A stretch of 4,605 bases of DNA from a virus (lineage: Duplodnaviria > Heunggongvirae > Uroviricota > Caudoviricetes): IMG/VR virus record IMGVR_UViG_2579778778_000001; one strand, given 5' to 3'. Below the pieces are notes generated by a model that saw nothing but the letters and a program-made list of their open reading frames with translations, was not told the DNA's origin and did no database searches. This document shows, in pieces, positions 1-4,605 of the stretch (the first letter of the stretch is position 1; each line of letters opens with the position of its first letter). A program made the position numbers and the translations under genes.

Positions 1-1997
1 CGGCAAAGAAATCCGAAACTGCAGCGGCATCATCGAAGAACGCGGCGAAAACCTCAGAAACGAATGCAGCTAACAGCGCACAGGCGGCAGCGACCTCACA
101 GACTGCATCGGCAAACTCCGCGACAGCAGCCAAAAAATCAGAAACCAACGCGAAAAACAGTGAGACAGCCGCAAAGACGAGCGAAACCAACGCAAAGTCC
201 AGCCAGACGGCAGCGAAAACCAGCGAAACGAATGCTAAAGCCAGTGAAACTGCGGCAAAAAACAGCCAGGTTGCAGCAGCCCAAAGCGAGAGCGCGGCAG
301 CCGGTTCTGCGACTTCAGCAGCTGGATCAGCAACTGCTGCGGCTAACAGCCAGAAAGCTGCGAAGACGAGTGAAACTAACGCAAAGTCCAGCCAGACGGC
401 AGCGAAGACCAGCGAAACGAATGCCAAAGCCAGTGAAACTGCGGCGAAAAGCAGTCAGGATGCAGCGGCTCAAAGCGAGAGTGCCGCAGCCAGTTCTGCA
501 AGCGCGGCGGCTGCTTCTGCCACTGCATCAGCTAACAGTCAAAAAGCAGCAAAAACCAGTGAAACCAACGCAAAGGTGAGCGAAACAGCGGCTGCGAACT
601 CAGCGAAAGCATCGGCAGCAAGCCAGACGGCAGCTAAAGCAAGCGAAGATGCAGCCAGAGAGTACGCAAGCCAGGCTGCGGAGCCGTATAAATATGTCTT
701 ACAGCCGCTGCCTGATGTGTGGATACCATTTAACGATTCGCTGGATATGATTACGGGCTTTTCGCCGTCATATAAAAAAATTGTTATTGGTGACGATGAA
801 ATAACGATGCCTGGCGACAAGATTGTTAAGTTTAAACGTGCATCGAAAGCAACCTATATTAACAAATCTGGTGTGCTGACAGAGGCTGCCATTGACGAGC
901 CACGATTTGAACGTGATGGCCTGCTTATTGAGGGGCAAAGAACAAACTACATGCTCAATTCGGAAAGCCCTGCCAGTTGGGGGCGATCGTCAAATATGGA
1001 TGTGCCCGAAACAGGGACGGATAATTTTGGTTTTACCTATGGAAAGTTTGTCTGCAACGATTCTCTGATTGGGCAAACCTCAGCCATTAATATGGCATCA
1101 ATTGCTGCAACAAAGTCAGTTGATGTCTCAGGCGATAATAAACACGTGACAACCTCATGTCGTTTTAAAACAGAACTGCAGGTAAGGTTGCGTATCCGGT
1201 TTGATAAATATGACGGTAGCGCAACAACTTTTCTTGGTGATGCGTATATTGATACACAAACGCTTGAAATTAATATGACAGGCGGTGCTGCCTCAAGGAT
1301 TACAGCGAGAGTCAGAAAGGACGAAGCTACCGGATGGATTTTTGCAGAGGCAACAATTCAGGCAATTGATGGGGAGTTAAAAATAGGCTCTCAGATACAG
1401 TATTCTCCTAAGCAGAGCGGGGCAACCGTATCTGGTGACTATATTTATCTGGCCACCCCACAAGTAGAAGATGGGCCTTGTGTATCATCTTTTATTATAT
1501 CAGGAGCGACGGCGGCGACCCGCGCAAGCGATATAGTTACAGTTCCAATTAAGAATAATCTTTATAATCTTCCTTTTACGGTTCTTTGTGAGGTACATAA
1601 GAACTGGTATAAAACGCCAAATGCAGCGCCACGTGTTTTTGATACCGGCGGTCATCAAACCGGAGCGGCTATTATTCTTGGCTTCGGTCGTTCAACAGAT
1701 TACGACGGATTTCCTTATTGCGATATTGGAGGAGCTAACAGACGGGTAAACGAAAACGCATCGCTTGAAAAAATGGTTATGGGGATGCGTGTAAAGTCAG
1801 AGCAGTCTACGTGCTCAGTAAGTAACGGGCATATATCCAGCGAAACAAAAACCACATGGTCCTGTATTCAGAACACCGCAATTATCCGTATTGGAGGCCA
1901 GACTACAGCCGGGTTACGTCATTTATTTGGTCATGTCAGGAATTTCAGAATATGGCACAAGGCATTGACTGATGCTCAGGTGGGGGAGTCAATCTAA
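1..1997 (+). CDS. stf: Side tail fibre protein, lambda Stf-like, 5'-partial (first full codon at nt 3; stop TAA 1995-1997). Repeat-rich Ala/Ser/Thr/Lys shaft, then a C-terminal putative receptor-binding domain with a LamG/ConA-lectin-like terminal motif.
   Basis: The frame of track ORF 576..1997 is open without stops back to nt 3. Translation of 3-660 gives repeats such as AKTSETNAKSSQTAAKTSETNAKASETAAK, which match from memory the AKTSETNA-type repeats of the lambda Stf N-terminal shaft. The track start at 576 is an internal GTG, not the true start. The C-terminus ends ...GLRHLFGHVRNFRIWHKALTDAQVGESI, resembling the terminal strand motif of LamG/ConA-like jelly-roll domains. It is followed by a coupled downstream gene (TAATG overlap). 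Confidence 0.85.
   Translation, partial: AKKSETAAASSKNAAKTSETNAANSAQAAATSQTASANSATAAKKSETNAKNSETAAKTSETNAKSSQTAAKTSETNAKASETAAKNSQVAAAQSESAAAGSATSAAGSATAAANSQKAAKTSETNAKSSQTAAKTSETNAKASETAAKSSQDAAAQSESAAASSASAAAASATASANSQKAAKTSETNAKVSETAAANSAKASAASQTAAKASEDAAREYASQAAEPYKYVLQPLPDVWIPFNDSLDMITGFSPSYKKIVIGDDEITMPGDKIVKFKRASKATYINKSGVLTEAAIDEPRFERDGLLIEGQRTNYMLNSESPASWGRSSNMDVPETGTDNFGFTYGKFVCNDSLIGQTSAINMASIAATKSVDVSGDNKHVTTSCRFKTELQVRLRIRFDKYDGSATTFLGDAYIDTQTLEINMTGGAASRITARVRKDEATGWIFAEATIQAIDGELKIGSQIQYSPKQSGATVSGDYIYLATPQVEDGPCVSSFIISGATAATRASDIVTVPIKNNLYNLPFTVLCEVHKNWYKTPNAAPRVFDTGGHQTGAAIILGFGRSTDYDGFPYCDIGGANRRVNENASLEKMVMGMRVKSEQSTCSVSNGHISSETKTTWSCIQNTAIIRIGGQTTAGLRHLFGHVRNFRIWHKALTDAQVGESI
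171..548 (+). repeat. In-frame tandem duplication of a 189-bp (63-codon) unit inside the stf shaft (copy 1 171-359, copy 2 360-548), with degenerate partial copies on both sides and a ~14-15 codon sub-periodicity.
   Basis: Direct comparison: gcaaagacgagcgaaaccaacgcaaagtccagccagacggcagcg at 171 versus gcgaagacgagtgaaactaacgcaaagtccagccagacggcagcg at 360 (offset exactly 189). The first ~100 nt of each copy are near-identical and the remainder more diverged. Protein units are AKTSETNAKSSQTAAKTSETNAKASETAAKNSQVAAAQSESAAAGSATSAAGSATAAANSQKA and AKTSETNAKSSQTAAKTSETNAKASETAAKSSQDAAAQSESAAASSASAAAASATASANSQKA. Confidence 0.85.
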
Positions 1998-2278
1998 TGA
2001 AAGATTTAACACTCAAATTTGAAGACAGGGCCGACTTTTCGGCCTTTATGGAGAGTATTGGCTATTATGATGACGAGTCGATGCAGGATGATATTCTTAT
2101 CGACGTGATAGGTAACGTGTACAAAGAAACCGGAGAACTGACTGAAGATGGCGAACCGGTATGTGTTAAGGAAGACGGATATTTTGTAAACGTGCGCATC
2201 ATTAATGATTCGCAAATATCGTCATTATTCGATGAATACGTGGTTGCTGTTGAGCATCAACTTCGTGGCTGGATGTGA
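1997..2278 (+). CDS. Hypothetical small acidic protein (93 aa), function unknown; candidate fibre chaperone or adaptor.
   Basis: ATG at 1997 overlaps the stf stop (TAATG). GGGGGAG Shine-Dalgarno at 1983-1989, 7 nt upstream. Uninterrupted ORF to TGA 2276-2278. Asp/Glu-rich, no hydrophobic segment. Low GC like the flanking genes. I do not recognise a family. Confidence 0.7.
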   Translation: MKDLTLKFEDRADFSAFMESIGYYDDESMQDDILIDVIGNVYKETGELTEDGEPVCVKEDGYFVNVRIINDSQISSLFDEYVVAVEHQLRGWM

Positions 2279-2287
2279 GGAAGAAAA

Positions 2288-3328
2288 ATGGCTACATCGA
2301 CAGTAATTCCTGATGACATCAAAACGCTAAAATCCGACGTTAGCAAATTAAAAAACGATCAAGGAAGCTACGCAACAAAATCTTATGTAGACAATAAAAC
2401 AACATGGAATGGTTATTGCAATGTAATCTATGATCAAAAAACATTGCCAACAACTGGAACTATATTCAGCGGTAAGCTGCATTTGTCAAATAAGACTGGT
2501 GAAACGGAAAACGCTTATAGTGACATATATACCAGAAAAAATATTGATGGTACTAAAGATACAATGACGAGGATCGTCACACATAACGGGACAAAAGGTA
2601 TCTTTTGGGACTTTAGTGATCTTTACGGAGGAACTTTAATTTTTCCAGGCAGTGATGGTTACCTTAAGATGGGGAACTGTCTCATGTCGTATGGTGTGCG
2701 GGGAAGTAACGCGCTTATTAAGTTTGATAATACAGACTCATTGCAGATCAAATATGCTAATCACGGGTCGACCATGACACTAAACACGCAAGGTACGGCG
2801 TATTCTGGTGTGTCGACGTTATTATGGGGAAATTCCAGCCGTCCTGTTGTTTATGAAGTCGGTGTTGATGGTGGCGCTTATATGTTCTATGCGCAGAAAA
2901 ATACCGATAACACCTATATGTTAAGCGTTAATGGTGCATGTCATGCCACCGCATTTAACCAGCATTCCGACCGGGATCTGAAAGACAACATTCAGGTGAT
3001 CGATAATGCAACCGACCGCATCCGTAAAATGAACGGCTATACATACACGCTTAAAGAAAACGGTATGCCCTATGCTGGTGTCATTGCACAGGAAGCTCTG
3101 GAAGCAATCCCAGAAGTTGTAGGTTCCGCAATGAAATATCAGGACGGTGCGAGCGGATCGGAAGGTGAAGAAGGTGAACGTTATTACACAGTAGATTATT
3201 CTGGTGTTACTGGCTTGCTTGTTCAGGTAGCCAGAGAGTCAGACGACAGAATAACAGCACTGGAAGAAGAAAACGCAGAATTAAGACAAAGATTATCTGT
3301 AATTGAGGCGGCGCTTGCGTCTAAATAA
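2288..3328 (+). CDS. Short tail fibre or tailspike-like protein (346 aa) with a C-terminal peptidase S74-type intramolecular chaperone auto-processing domain.
   Basis: GAGGAAG Shine-Dalgarno at 2277-2283, then ATG 2288. The C-terminal ~120 aa (from nt ~2966) carry the S74/endosialidase-chaperone hallmarks: Ser227 and Lys232 in NQH-SDRDLKDNI (Ser/Lys spaced i and i+5, as in the endosialidase CTD), then GYTYTLKENG, GVIAQEALEAIPEVV, YYTVDYSGVTGLLVQVARE and a terminal coiled-coil-like ITALEEENAELRQRLSVIEAALASK. The N-terminal ~226 aa are Gly/Thr/Asn/Tyr/Ser-rich and beta-like, typical of fibre tips. Confidence 0.85.
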   Translation: MATSTVIPDDIKTLKSDVSKLKNDQGSYATKSYVDNKTTWNGYCNVIYDQKTLPTTGTIFSGKLHLSNKTGETENAYSDIYTRKNIDGTKDTMTRIVTHNGTKGIFWDFSDLYGGTLIFPGSDGYLKMGNCLMSYGVRGSNALIKFDNTDSLQIKYANHGSTMTLNTQGTAYSGVSTLLWGNSSRPVVYEVGVDGGAYMFYAQKNTDNTYMLSVNGACHATAFNQHSDRDLKDNIQVIDNATDRIRKMNGYTYTLKENGMPYAGVIAQEALEAIPEVVGSAMKYQDGASGSEGEEGERYYTVDYSGVTGLLVQVARESDDRITALEEENAELRQRLSVIEAALASK

Positions 3329-3331
3329 TAT
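3303..3331 (+). promoter_or_regulatory. Candidate sigma70-like promoter inside the 3' end of the fibre gene: TTGAGG (3303-3308), 17-bp spacer, TAATAT (3326-3331).
   Basis: Pattern match only. The -35 is 4/6 and the -10 is 4/6 to consensus with ideal 17-bp spacing. A start near 3338-3340 would fall inside the 5' arm of the downstream hairpin. Confidence 0.2.
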
Positions 3332-3334
3332 TAA

Positions 3335-3357
3335 GGGGCCGAGCGCCCCGTTTTATT
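3335..3357 (+). terminator. Rho-independent terminator candidate: GGGGC (3335-3339), loop CGAGC, GCCCC (3345-3349), then G and TTTTATT (3351-3357).
   Basis: A perfect 5-bp all-GC stem followed immediately by a T-rich tract, starting 7 nt after the stop of the 2288..3328 CDS. The stem is short, so strength is uncertain. Confidence 0.55.
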
Positions 3358-3370
3358 GGGTAGGATGAAA

Positions 3371-3664
3371 ATGGATATAACACCTTTCCTTCATGCGCTT
3401 TGTGCTGTGGCTGCGCAGCTACTGATTGGTCTTTTTACCGGGAACTGGGCTTACGGGGCGATAGCCGGTTGTACGTTCTTCATTGCGCGTGAACACACCC
3501 AGGCAGAATATCGCTGGATCGAAATGTTCGGGCATGGCAAGCGAATGAATATGCCGTGGTGGGGCGGTTTTGATACACGTGCATGGGATGTGGCAAGCCT
3601 GATGGATTTTGCTGTGCCGGTGGTGGCGTGTCTGCTGGTCTGGCTGTTGGTTAATCGTGGGTGA
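3371..3664 (+). CDS. Small predicted inner-membrane protein (~98 aa from ATG 3371; alternative ATG 3365; track TTG 3356), two hydrophobic segments, function unknown.
   Basis: GGTAGGA Shine-Dalgarno-like at 3359-3365, 5 nt before ATG 3371. Hydrophobic stretches ALCAVAAQLLIGLFTGNWAYGAIAGCTFFIA and VASLMDFAVPVVACLLVWLLV flank a Trp/Gly-rich loop (MPWWGGFDTRAWDV). No lipobox or cleavable signal peptide evident. GC is visibly higher (~53% in a sampled line) than genes 2-3. Stop TGA 3662-3664. Confidence 0.65.
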   Translation: MDITPFLHALCAVAAQLLIGLFTGNWAYGAIAGCTFFIAREHTQAEYRWIEMFGHGKRMNMPWWGGFDTRAWDVASLMDFAVPVVACLLVWLLVNRG

Positions 3665-3674
3665 AAAAAGGTGA

Positions 3675-3803
3675 GCTGTATATGCAACGGAGGAAGAAAC
3701 CCCGTTGCTGGAAGCCTGGAAAAAGTATCGGATGCTGCTGAACCGTGTTGATACATCAACTGCACCTGATATTGAGTGGCCTACGAACCCTGTCAGGGAG
3801 TAA
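3675..3803 (+). pseudogene. tfa: 3' remnant (~41 codons) of a tail fibre assembly gene (lambda Tfa family); no start codon and no N-terminal part.
   Basis: The frame open from 3675 to TAA 3801-3803 translates to [42 protein letters not shown]. From memory this closely matches the C-terminus of lambda Tfa and E. coli prophage Tfa proteins (...[30 protein letters not shown]...). An in-frame TGA lies immediately upstream at 3672-3674, only 8 nt after the stop of the membrane protein gene. Confidence 0.65.
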
Positions 3804-3811
3804 TCATTGGG

Positions 3812-3881
3812 ATTATGCCGCAGCACGTCTTAAGCAAGACCATTATGCCGCAGAAACGTTGTATGCAATAACGTTCTGCGG
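3812..3881. repeat. Intergenic repeat cluster: 12-bp direct repeat ATTATGCCGCAG at 3812-3823 and 3842-3853, the second forming an imperfect inverted repeat GCCGCAGAAACGTT (3847-3860) / AACGTTCTGCGG (3870-3881) around a 9-nt spacer.
   Basis: Read directly from the sequence. The arms are complementary apart from a 1-nt bulge. No flanking T-tract on either strand, so not a classical terminator. Confidence 0.5.
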
Positions 3882-3888
3882 TTGGCTG

Positions 3889-3908
3889 ATGCACTTTCGA
3901 GAGTGCAT
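3889..3908. promoter_or_regulatory. Near-perfect 20-bp palindrome ATGCACTTTCGAGAGTGCAT (18/20 symmetric); possible protein-binding site or hairpin.
   Basis: Reverse complement is ATGCACTCTCGAAAGTGCAT, so two mismatches. It lies in the 380-bp non-coding gap between the tfa remnant and the convergent permease gene. Confidence 0.35.
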
Positions 3909-4045
3909 GTATTGAATTATTTCCAGCTATTATCGATTTTACGTATTTTTTGCATGAGAGAATTTGTACCTCCTCCCAACAACGACCTTCCATGACTTTC
4001 CGGACTTCTGTGGGCCAGCGGACGATGCTGCCCTCGGATGTTGTG

Positions 4046-4605
4046 CTAATTGGGTGATGACAAATCCTGTGTATGGGTGTTTCCCTTTGTGCGTGCGTTG
4101 ATGCTGGTAACGGTGAACGTCATGATGAACACAACCGCGAATAAGACGACAATCGTCGGAGCTGGTGCACTGTCGATAAAAAAGGACAACCAGACACCAG
4201 TCATTGACACTATTACCGATATGCCAATCGCCAGTAGGAGCGCAATATGAAAGCGTTGTGTCAGGAGTACCGCAATGGCGCCAGGCGCAATGAGCAGAGA
4301 AATGGAGAGAATGATACCTACCGCTTTCAGCGTCGCCACAATGGTCAGAGAGACCATGCACAGCAGCCCATAATGCAGACATCTCGTATGCAAACCGCTT
4401 ACCTGCGCCTGTTGATAATCAAAGCTGAACAGCAAAAAATCCCGCCATTTTACGCTAATAACAAGTGTAACCAGCCCGGCAATAATCACCGTCTGGATTA
4501 TATCGCCGATGGTTACCCCGAGCATGTCGCCGAAAAGAATATGGTCAAGATGTACGTCTGGTTTGACTGCAATATACAAGATCAGACCTGCGGCAAACAT
4601 GCCAG
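4046..4605 (-). CDS. ABC-3 family (ZnuB/MntB/SitD-type) metal ABC transporter permease, C-terminal ~185 aa; the 5' end of the gene lies beyond the window. Possibly a sitD-like Mn/Fe permease.
   Basis: Minus-strand ORF open to the window edge, stop TAG (revcomp of 4046-4048). The translation is multi-TM and aligns by eye with the C-terminal half of E. coli ZnuB as I recall it, including the LFGD-L-V motif (here DHILFGDMLGVTIGD) and the following helices. Assignment within the family is from context, not sequence. Confidence 0.8.
   Translation of the reverse strand, partial: GMFAAGLILYIAVKPDVHLDHILFGDMLGVTIGDIIQTVIIAGLVTLVISVKWRDFLLFSFDYQQAQVSGLHTRCLHYGLLCMVSLTIVATLKAVGIILSISLLIAPGAIAVLLTQRFHIALLLAIGISVIVSMTGVWLSFFIDSAPAPTIVVLFAVVFIMTFTVTSINARTKGNTHTQDLSSPN

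Follow-up and report, generated by a model that had tools for sequence, protein, structure and literature searches.

We analysed a 4,605-nucleotide stretch of Caudoviricetes DNA (the window; IMG/VR record IMGVR_UViG_2579778778_000001) around the gene at positions 2288-3328 (+ strand), and conclude that its 346-residue product is probably the exchangeable receptor-binding segment at the distal end of a two-part side tail fibre. The gene stands behind two others on the same strand, the 3' part of an Stf homologue (the proximal fibre; 1-1997) and a gene for a 93-residue acidic protein (1997-2278). Based on sequence comparisons, the anchor of the distal fibre appears to be a conserved ~15-residue peptide with a short coiled coil, most likely a plug to the upstream-encoded fibre protein. 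Distal segments of this kind, which chaperone themselves and belong to two-part side or lateral fibres of siphoviruses, form a known class, and the open reading frame (ORF) itself is an ordinary, previously annotated prophage tail-fibre gene of a common kind. Modestly new are the breadth and precision of the connector, comprising the N-terminal motif, the small protein and the C-terminal domain of the proximal fibre (Stf C-domain), across temperate and virulent lineages.

The first 15 residues of the distal fibre, MATSTVIPDDIKTLK (2288-2332, +), follow the consensus M-x-T-x-T-x-I-P-x-D-I-x-x-L-K and are the most conserved part of the fibre system. Homologues that are ~40% identical overall keep M-[AV]-T-x-T-[VIN]-I-P-x-D-I-[TK]-x-L-K, followed by variable heptads. 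Among distal fibres whose bodies (98-586 residues) share no BLAST similarity, 9-11 of the 15 positions are identical, and the motif holds this level while the small protein falls to 23% identity and the Stf C-domain to 26-40%. It heads distal fibres in lambdoid, Nonagvirus, T1-like, Dhillonvirus and T5-like phages. From residue 9 the motif runs into a short coiled-coil stalk of about two heptads (residues 9-24; 2312-2359, +) with hydrophobic a/d positions I11, L14, V18 and L21; the number of heptads varies among homologues, up to ~8, and the fibre has a weak profile match to T4 fibritin. A preliminary description of this DNA had seen only a short helix here and no virion anchor. AlphaFold2 (AF2) does place a low-confidence helix at residues 9-29, and Pfam finds no attachment domain in the 346-residue protein, but the conserved 15-residue motif had been overlooked.

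In the reverse direction, we scanned a degenerate DNA pattern of the motif over IMG/VR and obtained at least 120 matches. All 120 matches listed are fibre N-termini. Among these listed matches, every one of the 119 with enough upstream sequence starts 2-12 nt after a small-protein gene, 118 of them at 9-12 nt. This small gene is homologous to that of the 93-residue protein and itself stands behind a proximal fibre with the same C-domain, and the gap between the stop of the small gene and the ATG of the fibre is 9 nt in 97 of the 119, as it is in the window. Distal fibres of the type found in phage IrisVonRoten lend further support. Their first ~26 residues are restricted to phages whose cassette is split; the homologous body of DT57C lies inside LtfA, as one polypeptide with the proximal fibre, and lacks the N-terminal 26 residues and with them the motif, and in Wifcevirus and Gordonclarkvirinae the IrisVonRoten-type body carries other anchors.

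One architecture recurs in five siphovirus lineages: a proximal fibre with a C-domain of ~430 residues, an acidic protein of 85-93 residues, and a distal fibre. Its carriers are the Nonagvirus phages JenP1 and ESCO3, T1-like Drexlerviridae, the Dhillonvirus KarlBarth, lambdoids, and the T5-like phages T5_ev219, SelmaRatti, AKFV33 and IrisVonRoten. The four-gene cassette is also present in the plaque-forming lambdoid phages Tritos, HannyBb, 2G7b and PhiR63_1, for which literature searches by phage name found nothing relevant.

In IrisVonRoten (Bas32), bas32_0022, bas32_0023 and bas32_0024 form a homologous three-gene cassette. Gp22 is 52% identical over 744 residues to the Stf homologue, Gp23, which the BASEL authors annotated as 'tail fiber protein', is 39% identical to the 93-residue protein, and Gp24 has the motif at its start (MVTKTVIPTDITKLK, 10/15) and an S74 chaperone at its end. 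The AlphaFold-Multimer model of the BASEL authors predicts a T-shaped distal Gp24 attached to the proximal Gp22 (PMC11990801), with a protruding galectin-like domain of Gp22 at the joint that might be an additional receptor-binding domain (RBD) (PMC11990801); neither the small protein nor the N-terminal motif is discussed in that paper (PMC11990801). The two systems differ in the distal body, which has 346 residues in the window and 574 in Gp24, with no BLASTP similarity beyond the N-terminus. The window fibre does not have the T-shape made of a Gp12-like RBD1 and a T5-like RBD2; the same connector carries a different distal body, and its proximal fibre has a lambdoid virion anchor (phage_tail_N) rather than one of T5 type.

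Exchange of bodies is visible within the lambdoids themselves. The preliminary description had offered an exchangeable tip as one option, and this agrees with the finding that at least two unrelated bodies, of 346 and of 227-234 residues, fill the slot behind one N-terminus. Phage PhiR49_1 (record positions 5293-5997) carries in this slot a 234-residue protein whose first 15 residues are identical, whose body is unrelated and which has an S74 domain of its own. This mini-fibre allele, of 224-234 residues, occupies 26 of 80 IMG/VR loci and also occurs in tonn (record positions 4792-5466); it consists of ~8 heptads, a ~45-residue head and an S74 domain starting at Ser116, and its mature product would have ~115 residues.

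Within the matches listed, the N-terminal variant of the fibre tracks the small-protein variant without exception: MATSTVIP goes with a small protein of 93 residues ending in GWM or SWM (95 of 95 loci), MVTKTVIP with one of 89 residues ending in RTWA (18 of 18), and MTTYTNIP with one of 87-88 residues ending in RKWA (3 of 3). The 346-residue and the 227-234-residue bodies are each found behind both lambdoid N-terminal variants. A close comparison is offered by locus L252, whose fibre is 95.6% identical to that of the window over residues 9-346 while residues 2 and 4 switch (ATS to VTK). L252 carries the 89-residue module type; the small protein of L177, which represents this type, shares 32% identity with that of the window, and the Stf C-domain shares 30-60%. 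Because the two fibres agree from residue 9 while the upstream modules differ, the exchanged unit comprises Stf residues ~320-791 and the small protein and ends after about the first 8 codons of the fibre, whose body is a separate unit. JenP1 likewise joins a body of the window type (85% identical) to an N-terminus and a small protein of the Nonagvirus type. Coupling of the variants is the pattern that would be expected of co-adapted contact partners, and we take it as supportive rather than decisive.

The virulent Nonagvirus ESCO3 (record positions 4912-8354) is ~87% identical in nucleotides to window positions 1-3328, and its Stf C-domain and small protein share 91-95% protein identity with those of the window. 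At this level of similarity the ESCO3 cassette indicates a fairly recent exchange between virulent and temperate coliphages; a study that looked at such exchange reported that it was not found (PMC3945230).

The distal fibre itself is well recognised by family searches. The gene has an ATG start and encodes a precursor of 38.0 kDa (RefSeq WP_001326214.1, labelled 'tail fiber domain-containing protein') that matches phrog_4563, 'tail fiber protein', over its full length (PHROGs, E=7e-209); residues 87-341 align with the C-terminal tips of fibres of 1200-1567 residues. A Shine-Dalgarno sequence, GAGGA (2277-2281, +), lies 6 nt before the ATG and overlaps the stop of the 93-residue gene (2276-2278), and a terminator-like intrinsic hairpin, GGGGCCGAGCGCCCC, followed by a T-run (3335-3356, +) closes the fibre operon.

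At its C-terminus the protein ends in an intramolecular chaperone (Peptidase_S74) domain of 120 residues (227-346, 13.2 kDa; 2966-3325, +), which stands behind a body homologous to tail-fibre tips. The preliminary description had recognised this domain from the letters alone, and the Pfam scan bears it out: PF13884 matches residues 227-278 (model positions 1-57) with E=6.3e-14 and 52.4 bits against a cutoff of 22. It had also placed the scissile bond between His226 and Ser227 (2963-2968, +) and the general base at Lys232. The codons read exactly so (CAT at 2963-2965, TCC at 2966-2968 and, for Lys232, AAA at 2981-2983, all +), and position 1 of the Pfam model falls on Ser227. Ser227, Asp228, Leu231 and Lys232 are invariant in alignments of 11 and of 45 sequences, the latter comprising 45 homologues with identity down to 34%. 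The family profile matches the tip of the phage S16 long tail fibre (PDB 6F45, E=2e-8), where SSDRRIK pairs with HSDRDLK; it also matches the intramolecular chaperone auto-processing (ICA) domain of MYRF (PDB 7DC3, E=0.003).

In phage T5, pb1 is cut at the Thr1263/Ser1264 bond with Lys1269 as the base (PMC4690869), and the Ser-to-Lys spacing of +5 in the window fibre equals that of Ser1264 and Lys1269 (PMC4690869). With pb1 and the K1F endosialidase, whose chaperone domain is solved as PDB 3GW6, the fibre shares a C-terminal chaperone and a predicted cut N-terminal to the serine, the +5 spacing of the dyad being that of pb1 (PMC4690869), and its C-terminal helix (residues 304-345; pLDDT, the predicted local distance difference test score, of 84-91 in the AF2 monomer) fits the trimeric coiled coil of such chaperones. 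The preliminary description had drawn this likeness; similarity in sequence to K1F endosialidase and pb1 was too low for sequence and profile searches of the PDB to reach either, and they returned only S16 gp37 (6F45), the MYRF ICA domain and T4 gp34. Because these searches did not reach pb1, the dyad comparison with it rests on spacing and on the literature. Auto-cleavage at His226/Ser227, as predicted from these features, would yield products with computed masses of 24.8 kDa (residues 1-226) and 13.2 kDa (residues 227-346), matching the mature product of ~226 residues and the ~13-kDa fragment expected earlier. The window fibre and pb1 also differ in their anchoring: pb1 is a single polypeptide of 1396 residues held by its own N-terminus, whereas the fibre of the window is a separate 346-residue gene product.

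Between N-terminal motif and chaperone lies a body in which variation is unevenly distributed. Across 39 distinct 346-residue alleles, mean pairwise identity is 0.58-0.74 in residues 31-115 (2378-2632, +) against at least 0.9 in the flanks. Since allele variation concentrates there, this hypervariable beta-domain is likely the receptor-binding surface. A conserved beta region precedes the predicted cleavage site (residues 157-226; 2756-2965, +); it resembles a fibre motif of the T4 gp34 type, contains invariant W180, G181, R185 and E190, and in a PDB profile search it matches T4 gp34 (4UXE/5NXF) with E=2e-5. In addition to the N-terminal and C-terminal helices, the AF2 monomer resolves a beta-domain at residues 58-118 (pLDDT ~80) and a second beta region at 151-214 (pLDDT 80-90), giving four recognisable parts; it is poor at residues 226-300 (pLDDT <50).

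The proposed partner is the Stf homologue, whose full gene of 791 residues carries the N-terminal domain PF08400 (phage_tail_N, E=7e-67). The window holds its shaft (~nt 1-650) and its C-terminal domain (~nt 650-1997), and this C-part matches phrog_1419 (E=2e-257). The Stf C-domain matches NCBIfam GTA_spike_fiber (E=1e-13), bears a weak C-terminal Laminin_G_3 signature and resembles concanavalin-A-type lectins; over window positions 576-1997 (+) it matches PDB 6TB9, Rcc01080, which is the head-spike fibre in the gene transfer agent of Rhodobacter capsulatus (RcGTA), with E=1e-7. As the proximal fibre ends in a lectin-like domain, the branched, dual-receptor fibre pictured in the preliminary description is plausible. 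The RcGTA match is an unexpected link between a siphovirus side fibre and the capsid decoration of a gene transfer agent. Elsewhere in the protein, the shaft (window 122-575, +) is built of SETNAK-like units, rich in Ala, Ser, Thr and Lys, whose coding sequence repeats in tandem at periods of 21, 42 and 189 nt; phages differ in shaft length (686-812 residues), and the many alternative-frame and antisense ORFs of this region are by-products of the repeats. We also considered the divergent last 130 residues of Stf as the cause of the presence or absence of a distal fibre, and rejected this since both C-terminal types occur with distal fibres.

In the joint that we propose, three fibre chains would trimerise with the help of the chaperone domain, which would then cut itself off at His226/Ser227 to leave a mature subunit of 24.8 kDa. 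Without a covalent bond, the N-terminal peptide, a probable beta-strand at residues 2-8 followed by the two-heptad coiled coil, would fit as a plug into the Stf homologue's C-terminal module, where the 93-residue protein would either form part of the socket or help to assemble it. Contact with the host surface would be made by the hypervariable beta-domain, its target probably being a glycan such as O-antigen, and a second binding site may lie in the lectin-like C-domain of the proximal fibre.

Several observations weigh against this picture. Cassettes of the phage 21 type, in phage 21 itself and in 46 of 51 related IMG/VR loci, retain the Stf homologue and the small protein but have no distal fibre; there, the stop of the small-protein gene is followed 12 nt on by a membrane-protein gene (phage 21 record 1444-4085), and the upstream module evidently works without the 346-residue fibre. 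The association between fibre N-terminus and upstream module could be mere linkage of genes that lie 9-12 nt apart, and the conserved IPxDIxxLK codons could simply be a recombination site. The structural models are weak: the AF2 monomer of the fibre is moderate (pLDDT 62), a Foldseek search of the PDB with it gave no match at E<=0.001 (the best, to gp34, was non-significant at E=0.06) and recovered no endosialidase or pb1 chaperone structure, and the 93-residue protein modelled alone (pLDDT 45.6) was too poor for a fold search. Finally, we infer all three of cleavage, trimerisation and receptor binding.

A docking partner had been called for in the preliminary description, either the Stf tip or the 93-residue protein. 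The conserved gene triplet strongly backs an upstream partner, but in view of the phage 21-type cassettes the 93-residue protein is no more than a candidate for this role. That protein (10.7 kDa, pI 4.05), whose start overlaps the stop of the Stf homologue (ATGA), belongs to phrog_1361, of unknown function, and has no Pfam, NCBIfam or PDB relative. Its 310 homologues are all labelled hypothetical; the family forms 69 clusters at 50% identity, all of stand-alone proteins, and is carried by 162 phage records. The small gene is under purifying selection, with a ratio of nonsynonymous to synonymous polymorphism (pN/pS) of 0.34 in phage 21-type loci and 0.21 in the window type. Because phage 21-type loci keep the gene under such selection, the 93-residue protein has a role tied to the proximal fibre and independent of the distal one; it could help assembly in the manner of Tfa, or cap the joint permanently.

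Two versions of the joint differ in what this small protein does. It may be a structural socket that bridges the trimeric N-terminus of the distal fibre to the Stf C-domain, with no direct contact between fibre and Stf. Its gene is always the immediate upstream neighbour of the fibre gene, with a gap of 2-12 nt in the matches listed, and the coupling of N-terminal and small-protein variants (95/95, 18/18 and 3/3) would follow from physical contact. The annotation of homologues as 'tail fiber protein' by the BASEL authors points the same way, and the AF2 model of the isolated protein, disordered from residue 61 including the invariant GYFVNVR strand, fits folding on a partner. We nevertheless regard a bridging socket as possible but rather doubtful: the small protein stays intact in the phage 21-type cassettes (pN/pS 0.34), its covariation with the fibre N-terminus is confounded by adjacency, and a profile search of 1.8 billion representatives found no fusion of the family to any fibre protein, the few long matches being unrelated repeat proteins.

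Alternatively, the 93-residue protein would be a non-structural assembly factor that takes the place of Tfa for the Stf C-domain, and the distal fibre would dock directly. The gene sits in the classical tfa position, its start overlapping the stop of the fibre gene, in a cassette that has no intact tfa but only a 3' remnant, and its family persists without a distal fibre in phage 21-type loci. One depositor labelled the homologue in HMD-P4 'putative lateral tail fiber chaperone', and the distal fibre, having its own chaperone domain, needs no other. Its identity as a member of a Tfa-like family was tried and rejected, as there is no family match in Pfam, PHROGs or NCBIfam, and it has no similarity to the Tfa, gp38 or gp57A families; an assembly factor would also leave the coupling of small protein and fibre N-terminus explained only by linkage. 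We give this version the same credence as the bridging socket, short of an even balance.

The distal fibre might also bypass the Stf homologue altogether. Other phages do have short fibres that attach straight to the tail tip, and the 346-residue protein is a complete protein of the trimeric-fibre type with its own chaperone. Attachment to the tail tip or baseplate as an independent short fibre is nonetheless very unlikely, since the five lineages have unrelated tail-tip proteins and proximal N-termini (phage_tail_N; the T5 pb1/LtfA type; others in T1-likes), and the only neighbours shared by all are the C-domain of the proximal fibre and the small protein.

A second fibre is likewise mounted on a first in phages DT57C and DT571/2, where LtfB, an S74 fibre with a short conserved N-terminus, is mounted on LtfA and adds receptor specificity (PMC4728585, PMC10713586). 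That system differs in having a phiEco32 gp14/gp15-like joint at which LtfB docks mid-shaft on LtfA, and no gene of ~90 residues is described for it (PMC4728585). A structural precedent for the proposed anchor is LtfA of DT57C, which is itself anchored in LtfC by short N-terminal beta-strands that are followed by a trimeric coiled coil (PMC10713586). Like lambda Stf/Tfa, the cassette of the window lies downstream of J and lom, and its proximal fibre has the same PF08400 domain at the N-terminus. Lambda Stf has its own receptor-binding tip, folded by the separate chaperone Tfa, whereas in the window the Stf homologue has a different, lectin-like end, a self-chaperoning protein of its own forms the tip, and no intact tfa lies downstream.

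In the E. coli chromosome, the window forms the right end of a lambdoid prophage and adjoins sitD. At least 80% of it is held by 116 of 5426 complete E. coli genomes, and the fibre gene, identical or near-identical, by 717 of the 5426 (13%). E. coli 13TMH22 has, one after another, lysis genes, trkG, truncated J pseudogenes, lom, the 791-residue Stf homologue, the 93-residue ORF, the 346-residue ORF, a membrane protein of 97 residues, a 120-nt tfa remnant and sitDCBA. This Rac-site prophage has no head or tail-shaft genes and is therefore defective.

For that reason the window gene is probably a stored allele, available to infecting lambdoid phages by recombination, and not a working part of a virion; defective prophages do donate fibre genes by recombination (PMC3945230). 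A bleaker account, compatible with the molecular explanation given above, sees in the gene a decaying relic of a cryptic prophage with no present function. It draws on the loss of head and tail genes, the truncation of J into pseudogenes and the tfa remnant, and on the insertion sequence (IS) elements that interrupt the neighbouring Stf gene in some strains. But the ORF is intact with all catalytic and invariant residues, it is present in 717 of the 5426 complete genomes, close alleles occur in plaque-forming phages, and defective prophages are proven donors of fibre genes (PMC3945230); the arguments for and against a mere relic seem to us evenly balanced. The IS elements, of the IS3 and IS1 families, are found in the Stf-homologue gene of several E. 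coli strains and fit ongoing decay of the prophage.

The remaining features of the window lie downstream of the operon. Just after the terminator, a 97-residue membrane protein with two transmembrane segments (3371-3664, +; phrog_1443, of unknown function) is kept with or without a distal fibre in lambdoids (phage 21, ev207, 4A7 and Lambda_4C10) and is a possible moron or superinfection-exclusion gene. The tfa 3' remnant (3684-3803, +; a RefSeq pseudogene of 120 nt) is the scar of an earlier Stf/Tfa-type module that the present cassette replaced. The window closes with sitD (4016-4605, -), which follows the fibre cassette as in phage 21 (Jouyvirus; record positions 4177-7276). Because sequenced phage 21 carries sitABCD at the matching place, the sit iron/manganese transporter is probably cargo carried by the phage and not part of the chromosomal flank.

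Which types of O-antigen or capsule a siphovirus can get through is decided by its side and lateral tail fibres. The motif, the ~90-residue acidic protein and the lectin-like C-domain may together form a universal, so far undescribed plug-and-socket joint across temperate lambdoids and virulent siphoviruses, a proposal in which our confidence is slightly less than even. If it is true, any self-chaperoning distal fibre with the ~15-residue plug could be mounted on phages of the lambdoid, Nonagvirus, T1-like, Dhillonvirus and T5-like groups. Distal bodies would then be free to shuffle as they do, also between temperate and virulent phages, and host-range engineering would gain a minimal tag; should the 15-residue peptide suffice, phages and lambda-derived delivery particles could be re-targeted by a simple handle. 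It would then also be understandable how cryptic prophages, which hold this gene in 13% of complete E. coli genomes, serve as a library of fibre tips.

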